From the sequence record NC_048748.1: a DNA stretch of 64,000 nucleotides; one strand, 5' to 3'. Source of the stretch: Escherichia phage vB_EcoS_HdH2. The translations under genes and the position numbers were made by a program. The notes under the pieces are model-generated. The model was not told the origin of the DNA and did no database searches. It saw only the letters and a list, made by a program, of their open reading frames with translations. Numbering within the stretch: position 1 is the stretch's first letter; each line of letters opens with the position of its first letter. This document shows, piece after piece, positions 2,741 through 64,000 of this stretch.

Positions 2741-5530
2741 GTGTTTTCTATCCTCCAAGGTCACGCTGGGTTTTCTCGTGATTTAGCAACAGGTATTTGG
2801 CGAGAAATCAAAGCGGAAGATTATACCTTTGCCAAGCGATTCTCGAAAGAGCATCCAGAAGGTAAACCAGCTTCTATGCCCTTCAAATTTGATGTAATAG
2901 AAGAGCACGACCCTCAAAGCCTTGCCGAAATGTTACCACTTATGAGACGTTTAACGTCTGACCCTCATATCGTTGCGGTACGAGGTCGGTGTCTTGCACC
3001 TAAAAATAACGTGCGACGTAAGAAAGGTAACTTTAATGTATCTAATCCTAGTAATATTATTGCTATGGACGTGGATGGTATCCTAGATACCGGTGGGTAT
3101 GACAAGTTTAACCTTGTTGGTATGGCCCGCCACATTATTAAGATGTTGAATAGTATTAGTGAGGACATGTTCCCTCTTGATGCAGGCTTTATAGCTCATG
3201 CATCGTCTTCGGCTGGGCTAAAACCAGGTATCCGAATGCACTTAATGCTAGAATCTAACGTCAAGGTAACTCAGGGTCAGTTAAAGTTCTTATTTACATC
3301 TATCAACGATAGTAGTAAGCAAAAATTTGGTTTTGATATTGCCGACTTAGCTTATTATTCATCTGTCCAGCTCCACTATTTTGCCGACCCCTTATTTAGT
3401 GATGGTATTGTTGATCCGTTTAAAGCGGAGAGTAAGCCACGTCTGGTGTATGTTAAAGGTTCGAAAGTAAATTTGCCCAATAATCTGGTTGACTATGAAA
3501 CAACTAGAGGGGAGTTTAAGGAAGAGTTTTATTCTTTACTTGATCAAATTAAAGGCAAAAAGATCGCGTCTGATAAAGTAGAAGAAACCATCAGCGAATT
3601 GGAAGAAGCTGAGGATGGGGTGTACCTGCGTATTATCCCCAAACTCTACCATAGAGCATTAGAGGATGGTGTTGATTTTGCATGGCTAGAACGTGAGATT
3701 AAACCCGCTTTATCTGAATATATTGCAACTAAAGATAACAGTCGTAATATTCAAGATTACTTTAATAACGGTCGTAAGCAGGCTCTCAAAGCGTTTGTTA
3801 ATAATTCTAAACGTGAGATTCCATTAAATCTGAAAGGTGTTCCGCTCAAGAAATTAGAAGTGGATTCTCCACCAGAAGTTCCGTACCTGAAGATTAACAT
3901 TGTGCCTCCAAAAGGCCATATAACATTTGTTAAAGCAAGTCTTGGTACTGGTAAGACTACGGCAGTAACTAAATGGCTGGACGCAGGTGTTCTTCCTGGC
4001 AACTTTTTAGCAGTTACAAATACTAGAGCACTGGTATCTTCAAACGCTAAGAAATTTAGCGCAGGACAATATGATAAGTCTGTAGATATGCTCAACTTTA
4101 AACGTGGAGCTATTGATCGTATGTCCACGACTATTCACTCTTTGCATAAGTTCAAAAGTTTTATTGGTCAAATAGATACCATTTTTATTGATGAATGTGA
4201 TGCTGTAATGAATGATCTATTATTCGCACCTGTTGTTAAGCAACGTCGCGAATGTATTCAAGTTCTACGTGACATCCTCATGACAGCTAAAACTGTAATT
4301 CTATCAGATGGTGATATTAGTGCCGAAACTATTGAAGCATATGGTTCTCTAATTGATTTTGATAAACCAGTAGCATTTTATAATCATCACCGTAAGATGC
4401 TGTCAAAAGCTCATGCTTATGAGTTCCCTGATGAATCCAGTATTTGGGTTGCACTTCAGACTTCCCTGGAGATGGGTGAGAAATCTATCCTAGTATCTGA
4501 CTGTGGGCCAGATGAACTGAATGAGAAGGGCATGGCGTTGCGTCGTAATACGGGTGCGTTAGTTAAGGAAATCCACTCAAACTCTACGTCTGATGTAGAT
4601 ATTAGACGTATTCTGGATTACACAACTAATGAACTAATTGATCAACAAATTGATTGCTTATTATGTAGTCCATCCGTAACGAGTGGTGTTGACTTTAACT
4701 ATTTTGATAACGTATTTGTTATTACTAGAACTAGTAATCAAGCGCCAAACATGCGCTTTCAAGCAATCAGGCGCGACCGTGGTGCTCAGAATATCTATTA
4801 TTTTATTGATAAATCCACTAGTGGATTCTCCGCAGGTTCTGAACAGTATAATATTGATGAAGGTTGGCTGGAGTTAGCACAGCAATTATACGCACGTCGC
4901 AGGGAGCTGGAATCTAGGAACTATACTAGTACTTTACGTTATTACTTGCTTGATCAAGGTGCAACTATTGATATTTTCAGCGAAAGCTGGGGAACTATTG
5001 AAGGTGCTGGTAAAGAATATACAGAAGAGCGAATCAAAGCCATTCTGCATTCAACTCCGGATTATTGTGCTCCACGTCATGCGGATGCGTATGAAGCTAA
5101 ACTACTTCTTGTTCGCTATTATCATCTTGAGTCTATTAAAGATGTAACAGTTGAGCATGTTGAACAATATATCAAAGATAAACCGAATGATCGAGCCGCC
5201 TTCTTCCATAAGATGCACGAGATGTTTTGGGAAGATATTAAGAAGTGTTCAAATGTAACCATTAAACCATTCATAGAAGCTCTGAAAGGTAAGAAAAAGG
5301 ACTTCTTCCTTAAAACAGGTCAAAGTGCTAACCCAAAATATGCTAGAATGTATCTTGGTATGATGGGTATTGGTAAGGATATGAACACTGAAAATATCGT
5401 AGACTGGTATAGAACCTATTGTAAAATCGAGTGTATGCCAATCCCTTATAAGTTCATGACTGACGAGGAAAGACATATGCACGATGAAGCAATGGCAGAG
5501 CTAGGTGCTAGAAATGACAGTGAAGAATAA
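2741..5530 (+). CDS. SF2 helicase-like ATPase, replication-origin-binding-protein type
   Basis: 929 aa; Walker A KASLGTGKTTAV and Walker B IFIDECD; GTG start 6 nt after AGGAG. Confidence 0.6.
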   Translation: MFSILQGHAGFSRDLATGIWREIKAEDYTFAKRFSKEHPEGKPASMPFKFDVIEEHDPQSLAEMLPLMRRLTSDPHIVAVRGRCLAPKNNVRRKKGNFNVSNPSNIIAMDVDGILDTGGYDKFNLVGMARHIIKMLNSISEDMFPLDAGFIAHASSSAGLKPGIRMHLMLESNVKVTQGQLKFLFTSINDSSKQKFGFDIADLAYYSSVQLHYFADPLFSDGIVDPFKAESKPRLVYVKGSKVNLPNNLVDYETTRGEFKEEFYSLLDQIKGKKIASDKVEETISELEEAEDGVYLRIIPKLYHRALEDGVDFAWLEREIKPALSEYIATKDNSRNIQDYFNNGRKQALKAFVNNSKREIPLNLKGVPLKKLEVDSPPEVPYLKINIVPPKGHITFVKASLGTGKTTAVTKWLDAGVLPGNFLAVTNTRALVSSNAKKFSAGQYDKSVDMLNFKRGAIDRMSTTIHSLHKFKSFIGQIDTIFIDECDAVMNDLLFAPVVKQRRECIQVLRDILMTAKTVILSDGDISAETIEAYGSLIDFDKPVAFYNHHRKMLSKAHAYEFPDESSIWVALQTSLEMGEKSILVSDCGPDELNEKGMALRRNTGALVKEIHSNSTSDVDIRRILDYTTNELIDQQIDCLLCSPSVTSGVDFNYFDNVFVITRTSNQAPNMRFQAIRRDRGAQNIYYFIDKSTSGFSAGSEQYNIDEGWLELAQQLYARRRELESRNYTSTLRYYLLDQGATIDIFSESWGTIEGAGKEYTEERIKAILHSTPDYCAPRHADAYEAKLLLVRYYHLESIKDVTVEHVEQYIKDKPNDRAAFFHKMHEMFWEDIKKCSNVTIKPFIEALKGKKKDFFLKTGQSANPKYARMYLGMMGIGKDMNTENIVDWYRTYCKIECMPIPYKFMTDEERHMHDEAMAELGARNDSEE

Positions 5531-5747
5531 AAAATGGGAAACAAGGAAGTTTCCAGTAAAAGAACGTAAAGTTCCTGTTTACGATACTTCGGAAAAGCTA
5601 TGTAGGGTGGTACCGCACAGATTAGCTGGCATCCCTAACATATCCGAATGGTTACTTAAACAACGGAGGACTAACGTATCTCTTCGCATAGGGTTTGAGT
5701 TAGATAAAGTATATGCTGAACTTTCTTCTTTGCTCAAAGAATCATAA
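5505..5747 (+). CDS. hypothetical small protein (start uncertain, GTG 5505 or ATG 5514)
   Basis: 80-aa ORF overlapping end of upstream gene; no motif. Confidence 0.3.
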   Translation: MLEMTVKNKKWETRKFPVKERKVPVYDTSEKLCRVVPHRLAGIPNISEWLLKQRRTNVSLRIGFELDKVYAELSSLLKES

Positions 5748-5818: not shown

Positions 5819-6523
5819 ATGGCTGGTTCTCGCAGAAAGAAACATATCCATGAAATCCCGGATGAAGTCTTTAAAAAAGTTATAGAGCATCTGGAGAACG
5901 GTGGTACTAAGAAAGCAGCATGTGAAATGCTCGGCGTATCATCCAACCCAACTATGGAAAGGATGATAGAAGAGTGGCAAGATCGCCAAATTCAAGTTGC
6001 CGAGATGAAGAAAAAGAAACGTGGCACACTCATTGAAGGCATTGAGTTAGCTAACGTTATTGAGCAGTATTTATCTGGTGATTCTTTTGAAGAAATTGCC
6101 GATCGTAATTACCGCTCTGTAGCAATGGTTAAATCTGTTCTGGAACGATATGGTGCTCTACTTCGTTTGAACGATATTGTAGATCCATTGAATCCTCCAA
6201 TTATTCCTGATGATGCTGTAGCAGAAGAATTTGCAGTTGGTGAGCTTGTTTGGGTTCCTGGGTACCAGTGTATCGGTGAAATCAAAAAAGCAATGGATAA
6301 TCCTGTTGGCTGTTATCGAGTCTGGTTACTATCGGAAGGCAAACAACAGAACGTTCATTATATGAATTACGAGCTGGCCTCTGTTAAACATCTGGAAAAG
6401 TTAGGGGTTGATGTAAAGTCTCTGGGGTATAAATGGACTCGGGAAGAAGTCATTACGTTGATTAACGAAGCTGTTAAGGCCGCCTTGAAACTTGATAAAG
6501 AAAAAGGAAAACGCCGTGAGTAG
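5819..6523 (+). CDS. putative DNA-binding protein with N-terminal helix-turn-helix
   Basis: ATG 5819 preceded by GAGAGAGGAG; the ORF-track TTG at 5798 lies only ~12 nt from the -10 hexamer. HTH-like segment GGTKKAACEMLGVSSNPTMERMIEEW. Confidence 0.65.
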   Translation: MAGSRRKKHIHEIPDEVFKKVIEHLENGGTKKAACEMLGVSSNPTMERMIEEWQDRQIQVAEMKKKKRGTLIEGIELANVIEQYLSGDSFEEIADRNYRSVAMVKSVLERYGALLRLNDIVDPLNPPIIPDDAVAEEFAVGELVWVPGYQCIGEIKKAMDNPVGCYRVWLLSEGKQQNVHYMNYELASVKHLEKLGVDVKSLGYKWTREEVITLINEAVKAALKLDKEKGKRRE

Positions 6524-9211: not shown

Positions 9212-9261
9212 TACATAACCCTTTGCTACCCATCTACCATATCGGAATTATAAAGTGGTTA

Positions 9262-9290
9262 TTGACATTTTCGCCGCTTAGGTATATACT
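9262..9290 (+). promoter_or_regulatory. sigma70-type promoter between the ligase halves
   Basis: TTGACA, 17-bp spacer, TATACT. Confidence 0.6.
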
Positions 9291-9354
9291 ATTATCATTC
9301 AGTTGAGGGATAGAAAGTTATGGCGAGGGTAAGCAAAGTTAATTAAAATTGTAG

Positions 9355-9383
9355 TTGCTAAATGCTTAAATACTTGCTATAAT
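9355..9383 (+). promoter_or_regulatory. sigma70-type early promoter
   Basis: TTGCTA, 17-bp spacer, TATAAT, then ATTTATATAAATTGATAAGGAAG. Confidence 0.7.
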
Positions 9384-9413
9384 ATTTATATAAATTGATA
9401 AGGAAGAAATTTG

Positions 9414-10190
9414 ATGAAAATCGAAATTCCAACACAATGTCCCTCTTGTGGTTCTAAGCTAGATCTTGTCAACGGACAATTATTCTGTCGTAATAAGTCC
9501 AACTGTCCAGCGCAATCAAGTAAGTTAATTGAGAACTTCTGTACAAAAATGAAGTTAAAGGGCTTTGGCCCGAAAACTATTGAGAAGCTGGAGCTGACGA
9601 AGATTTCAGAACTATTTTACCTAACCGAAGAAGATTTGGTTAGAGCCGTGGGTAGCAAGGTTGCCGCTAAGTTAATTAGCGAATTAAATACTAAAGTTCG
9701 CGGAGACATTGACTTTGGTTCAGTTCTCGGTTCTTTAGGAATCCCTCTAATTGGAGAGGTTGCAGCAAAGAAATTATCCCAAAATTGCACTAGCTTTCAA
9801 GATGTGAGAGCTGACGGCAAGGCTGGAGAAAACTATAAAGCCTGGCTAAATTCCCCACAAGGCAAGGATGTTATCGAATTACCGTGGAAATTCTCAAATG
9901 GTATTAAGGGTGCTAAAGCTGAGGTCATCACTGATGGTCTAGTAGCCCAACCAAACGGAATAACGGTATGTATTACCGGATCTTTGCAAGATTTTGCAAA
10001 TCGAACGGATGCAACAAACTATTTAGAAGGTCTAGGATATACGGTTAAGAAATCCGTTACTAAAGACGTCAAATACCTAATCTGTGAGGATGAATCGAAG
10101 CGTTCTTCCTCATCTTATAAGAAAGCCGAAACGAATGGGATAGAAATCCTGTCGATTAAAGAACTATTGGAGAAAAATAATAATGTCTAA
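9414..10190 (+). CDS. ligB: NAD-dependent DNA ligase, subunit B (Zn-finger/HhH/BRCT part)
   Basis: Cys4 zinc finger CPSCGSKL...CRNKSNCPAQ typical of LigA C-terminal half; 259 aa. Confidence 0.85.
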   Translation: MKIEIPTQCPSCGSKLDLVNGQLFCRNKSNCPAQSSKLIENFCTKMKLKGFGPKTIEKLELTKISELFYLTEEDLVRAVGSKVAAKLISELNTKVRGDIDFGSVLGSLGIPLIGEVAAKKLSQNCTSFQDVRADGKAGENYKAWLNSPQGKDVIELPWKFSNGIKGAKAEVITDGLVAQPNGITVCITGSLQDFANRTDATNYLEGLGYTVKKSVTKDVKYLICEDESKRSSSSYKKAETNGIEILSIKELLEKNNNV

Positions 10191-53793: not shown

Positions 53794-53898
53794 TTGGGAA
53801 ATCTCGAAATTTCATAAGATTACACATGGAGGTGTGTCCAGTGGCCCCCCAGATGAGAATGAGTCTCATTACCGCCCGTTACTATTACCATGCTAACT

Positions 53899-53952: not shown

Positions 53953-54687
53953 TTACGCAACTTTTAATTTCTCGATATATTGTTGCGGGCTGCAACTATA
54001 TTCTGCGCGTTCTTCTTCTGTCATACTTTCCCAACATAATTGCAAGCGATCGGCTAGGAACTGATAATCATTATCATCCTCAAGAGATTCATCAATAAAG
54101 GTTTCACCTATCAATGTGACGCCGATTGATAGAATATCGTTAATAGCTTGCGCGTCCAGCGTTTTAAATCCATATGATGCCGCCGCTGATAGCACGCCTT
54201 TATGATCGTCGATCATCGTGAAATCAGCGTTCGGGTATAGCTGTTTGAATAGCTCAAAATAATGGCTTTTATAAATAGCGTCCTTACTGTGGTATATTTC
54301 GCTAACTTTATCAGCCGTAAAATATTTGTGAAGTGTATCGCGGGAAAATACACGGATATTACTATCCCCACGCCCTCGCAATCCTTGCTTGCGCAAATAA
54401 TAATAGTCCGACTTGCTCATCAGTCGAGCGGTACAAATAATGTTTAACGTGTTGGCGTCATTCATGCACTGGCGCATATATGTAACAAGCGGCAATAAAG
54501 TATCCTGCATTATTAAATCATGTTTACATGCTTCATTTTTATACTTATTTAAATCTAAATTCCCATCGCTATCAAAGCAAGGCGCTACGCGATGAAATGA
54601 ATTGATGATTGTTCCGTCCAGATCCCAAATCATGACGCGGGAAATATGCGGGAAATTACGGGTAATATTCGTTTTAACTTGATTCAT
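53953..54687 (-). CDS. dmp: HAD-family phosphatase, candidate 5'-deoxyribonucleotidase (dmp-like)
   Basis: 244 aa; HAD motif I MIWDLDGTIINS; located in pre-early-type block with A1-like gene. Confidence 0.5.
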   Translation of the reverse strand: MNQVKTNITRNFPHISRVMIWDLDGTIINSFHRVAPCFDSDGNLDLNKYKNEACKHDLIMQDTLLPLVTYMRQCMNDANTLNIICTARLMSKSDYYYLRKQGLRGRGDSNIRVFSRDTLHKYFTADKVSEIYHSKDAIYKSHYFELFKQLYPNADFTMIDDHKGVLSAAASYGFKTLDAQAINDILSIGVTLIGETFIDESLEDDNDYQFLADRLQLCWESMTEEERAEYSCSPQQYIEKLKVA

Positions 54688-57781: not shown

Positions 57782-58189
57782 TTATTCGCCTGCGGCTTGT
57801 TTTACTTCATCGGCAACGCCTAACAGCTGCGCCACGGCGTCCAACGTTTCTAATTTTGCGCTTTCCAGTGATGCCAGATCGTCAACGTCTTTGATAATGC
57901 CGGAATCAATGGCATGTTTAGCGATAACACGCACATAATGCGCTTTACGAATGGAACTGCCGCCGCCAACTTTACGCGGCTTATCGCTTTTCTGATACGC
58001 TTTCGCGCTGGTCAATTTTGAGCGAACGGACACGGGGGAGGCCGCACCTACTGCTTTCGCAATCTCTTTCAAGCCGTCGCTATTTGCGAAATCTAAACCG
58101 TTTTCATTGATTAGCTGCTGATACATGGAAACAGCCTGCTGGGTGTTTTCTTCATTCCAAGAAAATTTTGCGGTTTTAACGTTAGTCAT
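57782..58189 (-). CDS. hypothetical pre-early protein
   Basis: 135 aa; AGGAG SD. Confidence 0.55.
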   Translation of the reverse strand: MTNVKTAKFSWNEENTQQAVSMYQQLINENGLDFANSDGLKEIAKAVGAASPVSVRSKLTSAKAYQKSDKPRKVGGGSSIRKAHYVRVIAKHAIDSGIIKDVDDLASLESAKLETLDAVAQLLGVADEVKQAAGE

Positions 58190-60085: not shown

Positions 60086-60181
60086 TTATCCACAGCACAA
60101 AATGATTTGACACGATAGGCGGCGATATACGGGCTTATCCACAGACTTATCCACAGGTTATCCTACTGTATAAATATACAG
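60086..60181 (+). promoter_or_regulatory. left inverted-repeat module: three DnaA boxes plus a LexA-like SOS box
   Basis: TTATCCACA at 60086, 60135, 60147; CTGTATAAATATACAG at 60166..60181. Confidence 0.7.
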
Positions 60182-60448
60182 GGTAGAAAGGTAGTGTTAA
60201 CGACTGCAATCAATTTTATGCCGCCTAAAACGCTTTCTAACGAGCTAAATGCGGTGGGGTAATATTAAAGTAAAGCCGCAACGCGTCGCCCTGGTGGCTT
60301 CGCCGTGTTTTGCTCTTTACTATGCCGCTGCGCGGTTAGCATAAAACTAGGTGTTAGGCAAGGAAAATAAAAAGGTAAAATAATATTTGCCCCTAGAAAG
60401 AAAATACCTTTATCATTCACTCACCGATTAACGAGGGAGGCCGAACAA

Positions 60449-61775: not shown

Positions 61776-61821
61776 TTAATAACGGGGCGTTATTTTCGCC
61801 CCACTAACTAGGAGAATGAAA

Positions 61822-61968
61822 ATGGTTATTTTTCGAGCTATTCTGGCGGGTATCTTGGGCGCTATTTTATCTTTGTTTGCAATAGCTTTCGACGTTCACG
61901 CGGTTATTATTGGCGCGGGTATCGCTGTTTTTTCTTATTTGCTGGGCTGCATGAATAAAGGAGAATAA
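61822..61968 (+). CDS. small membrane protein (48 aa)
   Basis: AGGAG upstream; MVIFRAILAGILGAILSLFAIAFDVHAVIIGAGIAVFSYLLGCMNKGE. Confidence 0.5.
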   Translation: MVIFRAILAGILGAILSLFAIAFDVHAVIIGAGIAVFSYLLGCMNKGE

Positions 61969-62753: not shown

Positions 62754-62948
62754 ATGGGCAAGAATATTATTGTGACCAAAATCAGTACAATGGTTGACGT
62801 TTTTTACGTGCCCGATACGCCAGAAAACCGGCAAGCGGTCGAGCGGGGCGATTATGGTAGCGTTATTTATGATCACGATGGCTATTATCGGCATTTGGTC
62901 GATTCCTATGGGGAGGAGGAGAAGATCACGCATCGACTACCAGACTAA
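62754..62948 (+). CDS. hypothetical small protein (start uncertain)
   Basis: ATG 62754 after AGGAG; ORF track extends the frame to 62673. Confidence 0.45.
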   Translation: MGKNIIVTKISTMVDVFYVPDTPENRQAVERGDYGSVIYDHDGYYRHLVDSYGEEEKITHRLPD

Positions 62949-63025
62949 TAATCACGGGGCGCAACTATCAGGGAGTGCCCCAATTCCCAAATGAGAATCA
63001 TTCTCATTTGACCGCGCCCGTGATG

Positions 63026-63093
63026 GTTAGCCCGCTAACGATTAGGGTGTTACGTGTTGCCTTGTGTGATCGTTAGCGGGCTAACTAATTTTT
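63026..63093 (+). terminator. large hairpin plus T-run after the small-gene operon
   Basis: gttagcccgctaacg ... cgttagcgggctaac (15-bp arms, ~30-nt loop) followed by taattttt. Confidence 0.45.
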
Positions 63094-63205
63094 AAGCCTC
63101 CTCCAATTTTGCCCTTGTTTTAGTATCCCCACCAAAATTAAACGCGTTAGAATGCGATTCAGGACGTTTTAGCGGTATATTAGAATTATTCACTACATAG
63201 GAATA

Positions 63206-63313
63206 CTGTATAAATATACAGTAGGATAAGCTGTGGATAAGTCTGTTAATAACGCCTCAAAATGGCTAGGATTCTGTCAAGTCAAATCGTGCTGTTAATA
63301 AGTCTGTGGATAA
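63206..63313 (-). promoter_or_regulatory. right inverted-repeat module: LexA-like SOS box plus two DnaA boxes
   Basis: TACTGTATAAATATACAGTA (19/20 to LexA consensus); TGTGGATAA at 63232 and 63305 (TTATCCACA on minus strand). Confidence 0.7.
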
Positions 63314-63511
63314 CTTAAATAACAGTGTTTCTCACTTCCATTCTTAAACGAGAATGATTCTCATTTGCATTCCACTGTCTAACCGATAATCATTTCCTTT
63401 CTTAAATGAGAATCATTTCACTTTTTGAATAGTTCTCATTTCACTTCTTAAATGAGAATCATTATCATTCGCATTCCACTTCTTAAATGATAATGATTCT
63501 CATTCAAAGTC

Positions 63512-63536
63512 GCAGGGCAATTGCCCTGCGCTTTTG
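63512..63536 (+). terminator. palindromic hairpin plus T-run
   Basis: gcagggcaattgccctgc followed by gcttttg. Confidence 0.5.
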
Positions 63537-63755
63537 TGCAAATCCGACATGTGCTCCAAGGGTTACGTGCTGGCGTGTATGTGCAAATCCGACAATTTTT
63601 GGTAGTGTGCAAATCCGACCCGAAAAATTTATAAATTCGTGAGAGTGACGAATCTGTCTCCTAAAAACTCCAGCAATCACGAACTGCGTTCGAATCCTGT
63701 GGAATTAGCTAGAGTATGTGCAAATCCGACATGTGTTGAGCTGTGCGAATCCGAT
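63536..63755 (+). repeat. five direct repeats of GTGC(A/G)AATCCGA(C/T)
   Basis: Copies at 63536, 63581, 63607, 63718, 63743 with irregular spacing. Confidence 0.7.
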
Positions 63756-63779
63756 GAAATTTTTGTGACTTCGATGAGA

Positions 63780-63940
63780 GGGTGTGTGATTGTATAGGTT
63801 TGAGGAGAAGATGAGAGAGCGAGAAAAATTTGGGAGGCTAGAAGGATGTGGGTGCAGGATTGGTGCGGAGCACCTGATTTGCGGGGATTTTGGGGAAGAG
63901 TTGAGAAGATTTGGGAAGATTTGAGATAGGTGCAGAAAAA
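63780..63940 (+). repeat. purine-rich strand-asymmetric tract with GATTTGGGAAG-type repeats
   Basis: About 160 bp almost devoid of C on the plus strand; repeated gagaagat and tttggg(g)aag units; no ORF. Confidence 0.6.
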
Positions 63941-64000
63941 GCGAAATTTTATTAGCTAAATGGGGCAAAATAGCTTGACAAGTGAAAATTCTTGTGGCTC

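Follow-up and report, generated by a model that had tools for sequence, protein, structure and literature searches.

The stretch of DNA analysed here, referred to as the window, is 64,000 nt from Escherichia phage vB_EcoS_HdH2 (NC_048748.1), and the element under study is a cluster of short palindromes between positions 62989 and 63502, which an earlier reading of the same letters (the original prediction) had described as an array of sites resembling the box of the iron regulator Fur. We found that this array aligns as the orthologue of the direct repeat C and palindrome E-I block in the injection-stop (iss) region of phage T5, and that by sequence its sites are indistinguishable from the Fur operators of Escherichia coli. 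The explanation that we favour is that the array consists of tandem sites read through their half-sites by a dimeric DNA-binding protein, which to judge from the motif would be the host Fe2+-Fur; we give this whole explanation, including the formation of a complex at the stop region, a probability of roughly 40%. That Fur binds the sites in vitro appears very likely, its occupancy of the array in vivo is something we infer from the motif, and a role of the Fur complex in the pause of DNA entry is speculative.

The palindromic array and its counterpart in T5

Allowing up to two mismatches, the consensus TGAGAATNATTCTCA has six matches in the window, compared with 0.52 expected, and none of 100 shuffled sequences reached six. 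The palindromes are therefore real. Four of the matches are full 7-1-7 palindromes within the interval, at 62992 (no mismatch) and at 63349, 63453 and 63488 (one mismatch each), while the remaining two, at 53854 and 54062, lie elsewhere in the same terminal repeat. The 'five or six copies' counted originally are reached only if three half-sites, at about 63384-63394 (CGATAATCATT), 63407-63417 (TGAGAATCATT) and about 63432-63438 (an inverted GTTCTCA), are added to these four; on the other hand, two of the copies contain a perfect Fur half-site, exactly as had been described. The palindromes are not free-standing but are embedded in an asymmetric direct repeat, beginning CCACTTYYTAAATGAGAATCATT, with a unit of 23 or 35 bp. 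The main array extends over 63338-63505 on the plus strand and includes the full sites 63349-63363, 63453-63467 and 63488-63502 together with the three half-sites. The copy at 62992 is an outlier located 340 bp upstream, separated from the main array by a LexA-box-like palindrome and two DnaA boxes. It belongs to a perfect 21-bp palindrome, AAATGAGAATCATTCTCATTT (62989-63009), at the position of T5 palindrome C; this palindrome is found in most of the T5-like phages examined but not in T5, which has a GC hairpin at that position.

In a megablast comparison, positions 62900-64000 matched T5-like phages (Tequintavirus and its relatives) in their terminal repeat with 86-92% identity, and BLASTN of the array region gave 86% identity to T5 (nt 9238-9694) and 89-95% to other T5-like phages. 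The array aligns with nt 9468-9637 of the T5 sequence AY587007, a segment comprising copies 1-4 of direct repeat C and palindromes E, F, G, H and I, and the main array was equated with these four copies and with palindromes E, G, H and I. The order of the elements matches that of T5 nt 9330-9700, with palindrome D and the DnaA-box inverted repeats upstream of the array and the hairpin of palindrome J, the 7.9% nick and direct repeat D downstream of it. The left boundary of the terminal repeat was placed at 53837 by alignment to T5 nt 1, and its right end was estimated by applying the length of the T5 repeat (LTR) from 53837. The array thus sits inside the terminal repeat, about 470 bp from this estimated end and downstream of the rightward pre-early operon. 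As a physical repeat block it is already known and annotated in T5: Davison named it 'Repeat Region 3' and presumed it to be the injection-stop signal, and wrote of its function that it was 'impossible to guess'. Davison calculated the T5 shear point of first-step transfer as nt 9618, which corresponds to a position within the array's last unit. By analogy with T5, first-step transfer should end with the entry of this block.

Equivalence of the array sites to Fur operators

The original prediction had suggested scoring the sites with a Fur position weight matrix. We used a symmetric 19-mer matrix derived from 14 Fur-regulated intergenic regions of E. coli MG1655 and iterated from the classical consensus. 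The native E. coli operators scored 5.8-21.5 bits in leave-one-out analysis, and the array sites scored 12.7-18.4 bits, which is the level of native operators. The scores were 14.0 and 12.7 bits for the outlier (62987 and 62993), 17.7 and 13.2 bits in the first part of the main array (63350 and 63385), and 16.1/18.4 and 14.4/16.8 bits in its right part (63448/63454 and 63483/63489). Four pairs of registers 6 bp apart were observed (62987/62993, 63344/63350, 63448/63454 and 63483/63489), and overlapping sites with a 6-bp offset are the arrangement of Fur site clusters (Chen et al. 2007). In the whole window 19 positions reached at least 12 bits, of which 8 are concentrated in the 520 bp of the array; at least 16 bits was reached by no position in the 53.8-kb unique part of the window and by seven in the terminal repeat.

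The strongest evidence came from the reciprocal comparison, which is independent of the matrix derived from E. coli. For this, 80 distinct full phage sites served as the sole basis of a matrix, with which 97.5 kb of E. coli DNA was scanned. The 16 best matches were all located in the Fur-regulated intergenic regions, and these together account for 3.4% of the DNA scanned. The scores included 19.5 bits for fecI, 18.1 for ryhB, 16.5 each for fhuF and fhuE and 15.6 for entS, compared with only 2.5 bits for the best match outside the Fur-regulated regions. Native operators also carry variants seen in the phage, namely ATATGAGAATGG in fecI, AAATGAGAA in fhuE and AATAATCATTCTCATT in ryhB; those of fecI and fhuE show the G variant of the phage and its AAAT flank. 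The likeness of TGAGAAT to the Fur half-site TGATAAT, which was the starting point of the original prediction, is therefore real and stronger than had been claimed, the forward, reciprocal and family-wide comparisons being in agreement. No mention of Fur or LexA at the T5 stop signal was found by a full-text literature search, to which Davison 2015, Heusterspreute 1987 and Wang 2005 were outside scope, so that an earlier mention is possible; the resemblance is apparently unreported.

Conservation of the array among T5-like phages

For comparison within the family we collected 26 distinct T5-like stop-signal regions from IMG/VR, a database in which HdH2 itself is also represented. Each of the 26 contains 4-9 positions of at least 12 bits, compared with about 0.1 in dinucleotide shuffles, and the highest Fur score per region ranged from 15.8 to 22.1 bits. 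The Fur-like array is also present in the Klebsiella phages Riker and IME260 and in DT57C, and the Pectobacterium phages My1 and DU_PP_V show four matches to the Fur matrix each. In all, 27 T5-like phages of Escherichia, Klebsiella and other hosts had 4-9 matches each, compared with 0.1 expected. Among 149 distinct units, the half-sites TGATAAT, TGAGAAT and TGCGAAT occur 50, 48 and 28 times, respectively. Since the exact Fur half-site, TGATAAT, is the commonest in the family, the TGAGAAT consensus of the original prediction is specific to this phage. When the profile of the units was slid along the Fur profile, the column correlation had two peaks, of 0.70 and 0.64, at registers offset by 6 bp, higher than in all of 2000 column permutations. 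The number of units varies from 4 to 11 per phage by gain and loss of 23- or 35-bp units, and variation in steps of these lengths indicates that the array is non-coding.

An older view of the stop signal holds that the repeats act as DNA structure, that is, as a hairpin, cruciform or bent DNA jamming the tail or membrane channel with no sequence-specific reader. The literature does describe this region as having many repeats and many palindromes, with possible secondary structures, and as a single strand 63330-63535 folds much more stably than shuffled sequences do (-39.1 against -13.1 kcal/mol, z = -9.6). However, just 9 of the 80 full family sites are perfect palindromes, and compensatory pairing changes over these 80 sites were not in excess: complementarity at the two variable pairs was 0.53 and 0.34, against 0.53 and 0.41 expected from independent variation. 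Conservation falls on specific bases instead of on pairing, and the 22-bp hairpin of HdH2 (palindrome H) is not retained in T5 or other relatives. Because the two halves vary independently, the data point to reading by a protein rather than to hairpins. Ejection is, moreover, complete in vitro, and we consider structural jamming quite improbable. An RNA element was also considered and rejected, as Rfam returned no matching family and only sub-threshold chance hairpin matches.

Elements neighbouring the array

The palindrome TACTGTATAAATATACAGTA (63204-63223), which is T5 palindrome D and part of the stop-signal region, has a sequence close to that of a LexA (SOS) box. The LexA consensus is TACTG(TA)5CAGTA, or CTGT-N8-ACAG with an AT-rich centre, and palindrome D differs from it at 1 position in 20. 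Only one other match was found in the window (60164-60183, 3 mismatches), making two against 0.01 expected. The core CTGTATA(A/T)(A/T)TATACAG is shared by at least 20 of the 26 T5-like regions and by the Vibrio phages phi 3, IW18 and D386, and the counterpart in Proteus phage PM135 is a CTGT-N8-ACAG variant, CTGTAATTATATACAG. Palindrome D could be a LexA site or, equally, a family-wide target of the phage protein A2, which is treated in the Discussion.

Two perfect DnaA boxes, TTATCCACA, are located on the minus strand at 63232-63240 and 63305-63313, in the T5 inverted repeats D' and C' and their spacer. Perfect boxes occur at five places in the window (60086, 60135, 60147, 63232 and 63305; 0.64 expected), and none of the five falls outside the terminal repeat's two repeat regions. 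DnaA boxes of T5 are said to have been described by Heusterspreute as well. Their presence in the T5 repeat regions was already described by Davison. The consensus of IHF, WATCARNNNNTTR, has no match in 62900-63560.

Immediately to the right of the array, a GC-rich hairpin followed by a T run (63511-63530, plus strand) corresponds to T5 palindrome J; it is terminator-like and conserved in all aligned phages. In the T5 annotation palindrome J occupies nt 9650-9668, and its right arm carries the major 7.9% single-strand nick. Five copies of TGTGCAAATCCGAC (63535-63755, plus strand), which constitute T5 direct repeat D, form the right-hand flank of the array. A near-identical motif, GTGCAAA(A/T)CCGA, is found in Vibrio phages (phi 3, 5911-5990; IW18, about 100-290), so that direct repeat D is far more deeply conserved than the Fur-like array.

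Of the two matches to TGAGAATNATTCTCA lying outside the interval, the palindrome TGAGAATGAGTCTCA (53854-53868) scored 17.6 bits on the Fur matrix and is 18-32 bp inside the estimated left boundary of the terminal repeat, that is, at the tip of the first-entering DNA. The element ATGAGAA(T/C)NAGTCTCATTACCGCCC is present in several T5-like phages, in Pectobacterium phage My1 and in Vibrio phage IW18, with a GATAAT variant in Vibrio phi 3, and is absent from T5, which has a different sequence there. One possibility for the tip palindrome is a signal for terminase or for the DNA end; another is that the reader of the array has a second site here. The other match is a perfect Fur 15-mer, TGATAATCATTATCA (54062-54076), which lies inside dmp and scored 17.1 bits in two registers. 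It encodes the peptide DDNDYQ on the minus strand, and both the peptide and the 15-mer are also found in Klebsiella phages, where the score is 24.5 bits. Given the conserved DDNDYQ and its AT-rich codons, we did not accept it as a true Fur site or as a member of the array; it is probably a by-product of coding.

Two further observations concern the pre-early operon. An isolated match to the Fur matrix, GAGAATGAAAATGGTTATT (61812-61830, 15.8 bits), overlaps the start codon of a membrane-like ORF (open reading frame) of 50 aa (61816-61968) in this operon. A perfect 17-bp inverted repeat, GTTAGCCCGCTAACGAT (63026-63042) and ATCGTTAGCGGGCTAAC (63069-63085), with a loop of 26 nt and with TAATTTTT after it, probably serves this phage as the terminator of its rightward pre-early operon.

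Discussion

The injection stop of T5 occurs without protein synthesis and does not occur when the DNA is ejected into FhuA proteoliposomes, from which it follows that whatever reads the stop region must be a pre-existing component of the host. In the explanation proposed here, each full site would offer two overlapping Fur registers 6 bp apart, as natural operator clusters do, and Fur already present in the cell would coat the array on its arrival in the cytoplasm. The neighbouring DnaA boxes would be bound by DnaA and the LexA-like palindrome by LexA or phage A2, so that a nucleoprotein complex of Fur, DnaA and LexA or A2 would form at the trailing end of the first-step DNA. Such a complex might be part of the stop signal, or might hold or protect the DNA end until its release by A1 and A2. 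The resemblance of the neighbouring motifs to sites of two further host proteins, LexA and DnaA, was counted in favour of a host reader. The stronger proposal, that the T5-type stop signal is made up of high-affinity operators of repressors which the host already contains, with Fur on the array, LexA on palindrome D and DnaA on the boxes, seems improbable to us, and it is just as improbable that host repressors actually cause the stop.

Several points weigh against Fur as the reader. The case rests on motif equivalence throughout, and how a cytoplasmic protein could halt pressure-driven DNA entry is physically unclear. To our knowledge, fur has not emerged as a host factor of T5. The G at position 4 of the half-site is the base less favoured by Fur in one register, and the left flank of the unit, CCACTTYY, is conserved as strongly as the core, which Fur does not explain. 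Furthermore, Vibrio phages phi 3, IW18 and D386 have unrelated tandem repeats at the position of the array: a 30-bp unit with GCTAAATTAGC in 4.5 copies in phi 3 (6006-6140 of its sequence), a 17-bp unit, CACTAATATAGGGAT, in 4-5 copies in IW18 (about 330-400) and AT-rich units of about 45 bp in D386 (about 5420-5610). Vibrio Fur recognises the same box, which makes this replacement count against a Fur reading. The CTGTATA(A/T)ATATACAG palindrome is retained in all three phages, as are the TTATCCACA boxes. In addition, phi 3 and IW18 have the GTGCAAA(A/T)CCGA repeats and a GC hairpin or nick-like CTGCGC motif, and in Proteus PM135 one TGAGAATGCTTCTCA and two GTAATGATAAC are kept. At the position of the array it is thus the architecture that appears to be conserved across lineages, and not the sequence, and a lineage-specific array at a fixed position would suit a co-evolving phage reader.

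The main rival is a phage reader, A2, the product of a gene at 57782-58189 on the minus strand (PHROG 1725). This DNA-binding dimer is indispensable for second-step transfer, and the literature searched yielded no published target site for it. On this account the array is a cis loading site for A2, alone or with A1; the two proteins would assemble on the palindromes beside the entry channel after the first step and restart or pull in the remaining DNA, and the resemblance to Fur sites would be a coincidence or reflect competition with Fur. The location of the array at the stop point and the unit flank that Fur leaves unexplained both agree with this, as does the complete change of the array motif in the Vibrio phages, whose A2 proteins are 33-39% identical. 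The predicted structure of A2 (pLDDT 84) is all-helical: a bundle of three helices at the N-terminus is joined by a basic linker, KPRKVGGGSS, to a helical domain at the C-terminus. The linker is confined to Markadamsvirinae and Proteus phages (D386 has a KRKVGG variant) and is missing from phi 3 and IW18; the lineages with the basic linker are those carrying TGAGAAT-type sites. Nevertheless, the phage motif picks out E. coli Fur operators almost perfectly, for which we estimate a chance of a few per cent if the reader is an unrelated protein. The likely recognition helix of A2, SVRSKL, is invariant across the whole family, even in the Vibrio phages that lack the motif, and therefore fits a family-wide target better, for example the CTGTATAAATATACAG palindrome. 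A Foldseek search of the A2 model against the PDB gave nothing better than E = 0.5, with a vague helix-turn-helix or Myb-like resemblance, and since the model is all-helical and has no Fur-like winged helix, we rejected the idea that A2 is a Fur-like protein. The original prediction had allowed for an operator array of a phage-encoded dimeric regulator. A phage-encoded dimer survives in the form of A2, the only DNA-binding protein found in the repeat, whereas an operator of a phage repressor is not what we observed, as no promoter overlaps the sites. We regard A2 as the reader of the array as possible but unlikely.

The biological rationale of the original prediction fared less well than the Fur likeness itself, and its interpretation is only partly supported. 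It had linked the array to the iron- or vitamin-regulated transporters to which such phages adsorb, and had raised the possibility that it titrates Fur or serves as an iron-responsive element for control of the receptor or of phage genes. The sites are indeed of Fur-operator quality. However, DT57C uses BtuB, a receptor that is not Fur-regulated, and carries the same array, so that the array does not track the receptor type and the link was rejected. Fur is present in thousands of molecules per cell, and one entering repeat offers roughly ten Fur-dimer sites, which makes early titration quantitatively implausible. T5 degrades the host DNA within minutes of first-step transfer, and de-repressing host iron genes would therefore achieve little. 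No credible sigma-70 promoter was found over the array, only weak 9-of-12 matches close to the shuffle expectation, and there is no gene downstream of it; the array is therefore not an iron-responsive promoter, and a promoter or operator reading was set aside. Altogether, titration or iron control is extremely improbable. An iteron set had also been suggested, and the array might be the iteron or accessory set of an oriC-like element, or a signal for duplication or packaging of the terminal repeat. Perfect DnaA boxes do adjoin the AT-rich array, a lineage-specific tandem array is found at the same position in every subfamily examined, and a related palindrome lies at the left tip of the genome. 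Yet no Rep-type gene was found in the terminal repeat, the T5 origins map near the centre of the genome, the replication genes are not expressed at the first-step stage, and the array is some distance (the 470 bp given above) from the estimated right end of the repeat. The iteron proposal is thus weak, and this group of explanations is improbable.

The delivery of T5 DNA pauses at 8%; what halts it, and on what A1 and A2 act afterwards, are questions that date from the model of Lanni in the 1960s, and the mechanism was still called 'poorly understood' in a 2026 paper. A Fur-type cluster beside a LexA-type box and DnaA boxes turns a catalogue of palindromes into a set of named candidate readers, and the Fur likeness, being real, family-wide and reciprocal, makes the old question directly testable while itself staying an inference from sequence. 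If the stop signal is built from operators of host repressors, the 8% pause, or what becomes of the first-step DNA, would depend on proteins of the host and thereby on the iron and SOS state of the cell, and through the related Fur-like palindrome at the entering tip the reader of the array could mark this DNA at both ends. If Fur reads the array, a virulent phage would be using a global regulator of its host as a checkpoint of genome entry. If A2 reads the array instead, the long-sought cis site for second-step transfer would be defined.

Among the known systems, the closest is T5 Repeat Region 3, to which the array region is orthologous (with about 86% identity to T5 and a maximum of 95% among the other T5-like phages), with the LexA-like palindrome D, the DnaA boxes, direct repeat C, palindrome J and direct repeat D in the same order; HdH2 differs in having an extra perfect copy at the palindrome C position, and the phages differ in the number of units and in half-site variants. 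Origins of the iteron or oriC type likewise have DnaA boxes beside a tandem AT-rich array, but no initiator gene is near the array of HdH2 and the known T5 origins are elsewhere. With the Fur operator clusters of E. coli (fecI, fhuF, entS, ryhB and fhuA) the array shares a motif that is equivalent in both directions of comparison, registers paired 6 bp apart and several adjacent sites; the phage sites differ in that they are candidate sites, free of promoter overlap, on the DNA of a virulent phage and inside a longer direct repeat with a conserved extra flank. Finally, the DnaA-box model of Davison (bioRxiv 10.1101/866236) and the explanation favoured here have in common that a pre-existing host DNA-binding protein would read conserved sites of the stop region. 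They differ in the protein and in the sites, as the DnaA boxes occur throughout the family, Vibrio phages included, and the Fur-like array only in those relatives whose hosts are Enterobacterales.

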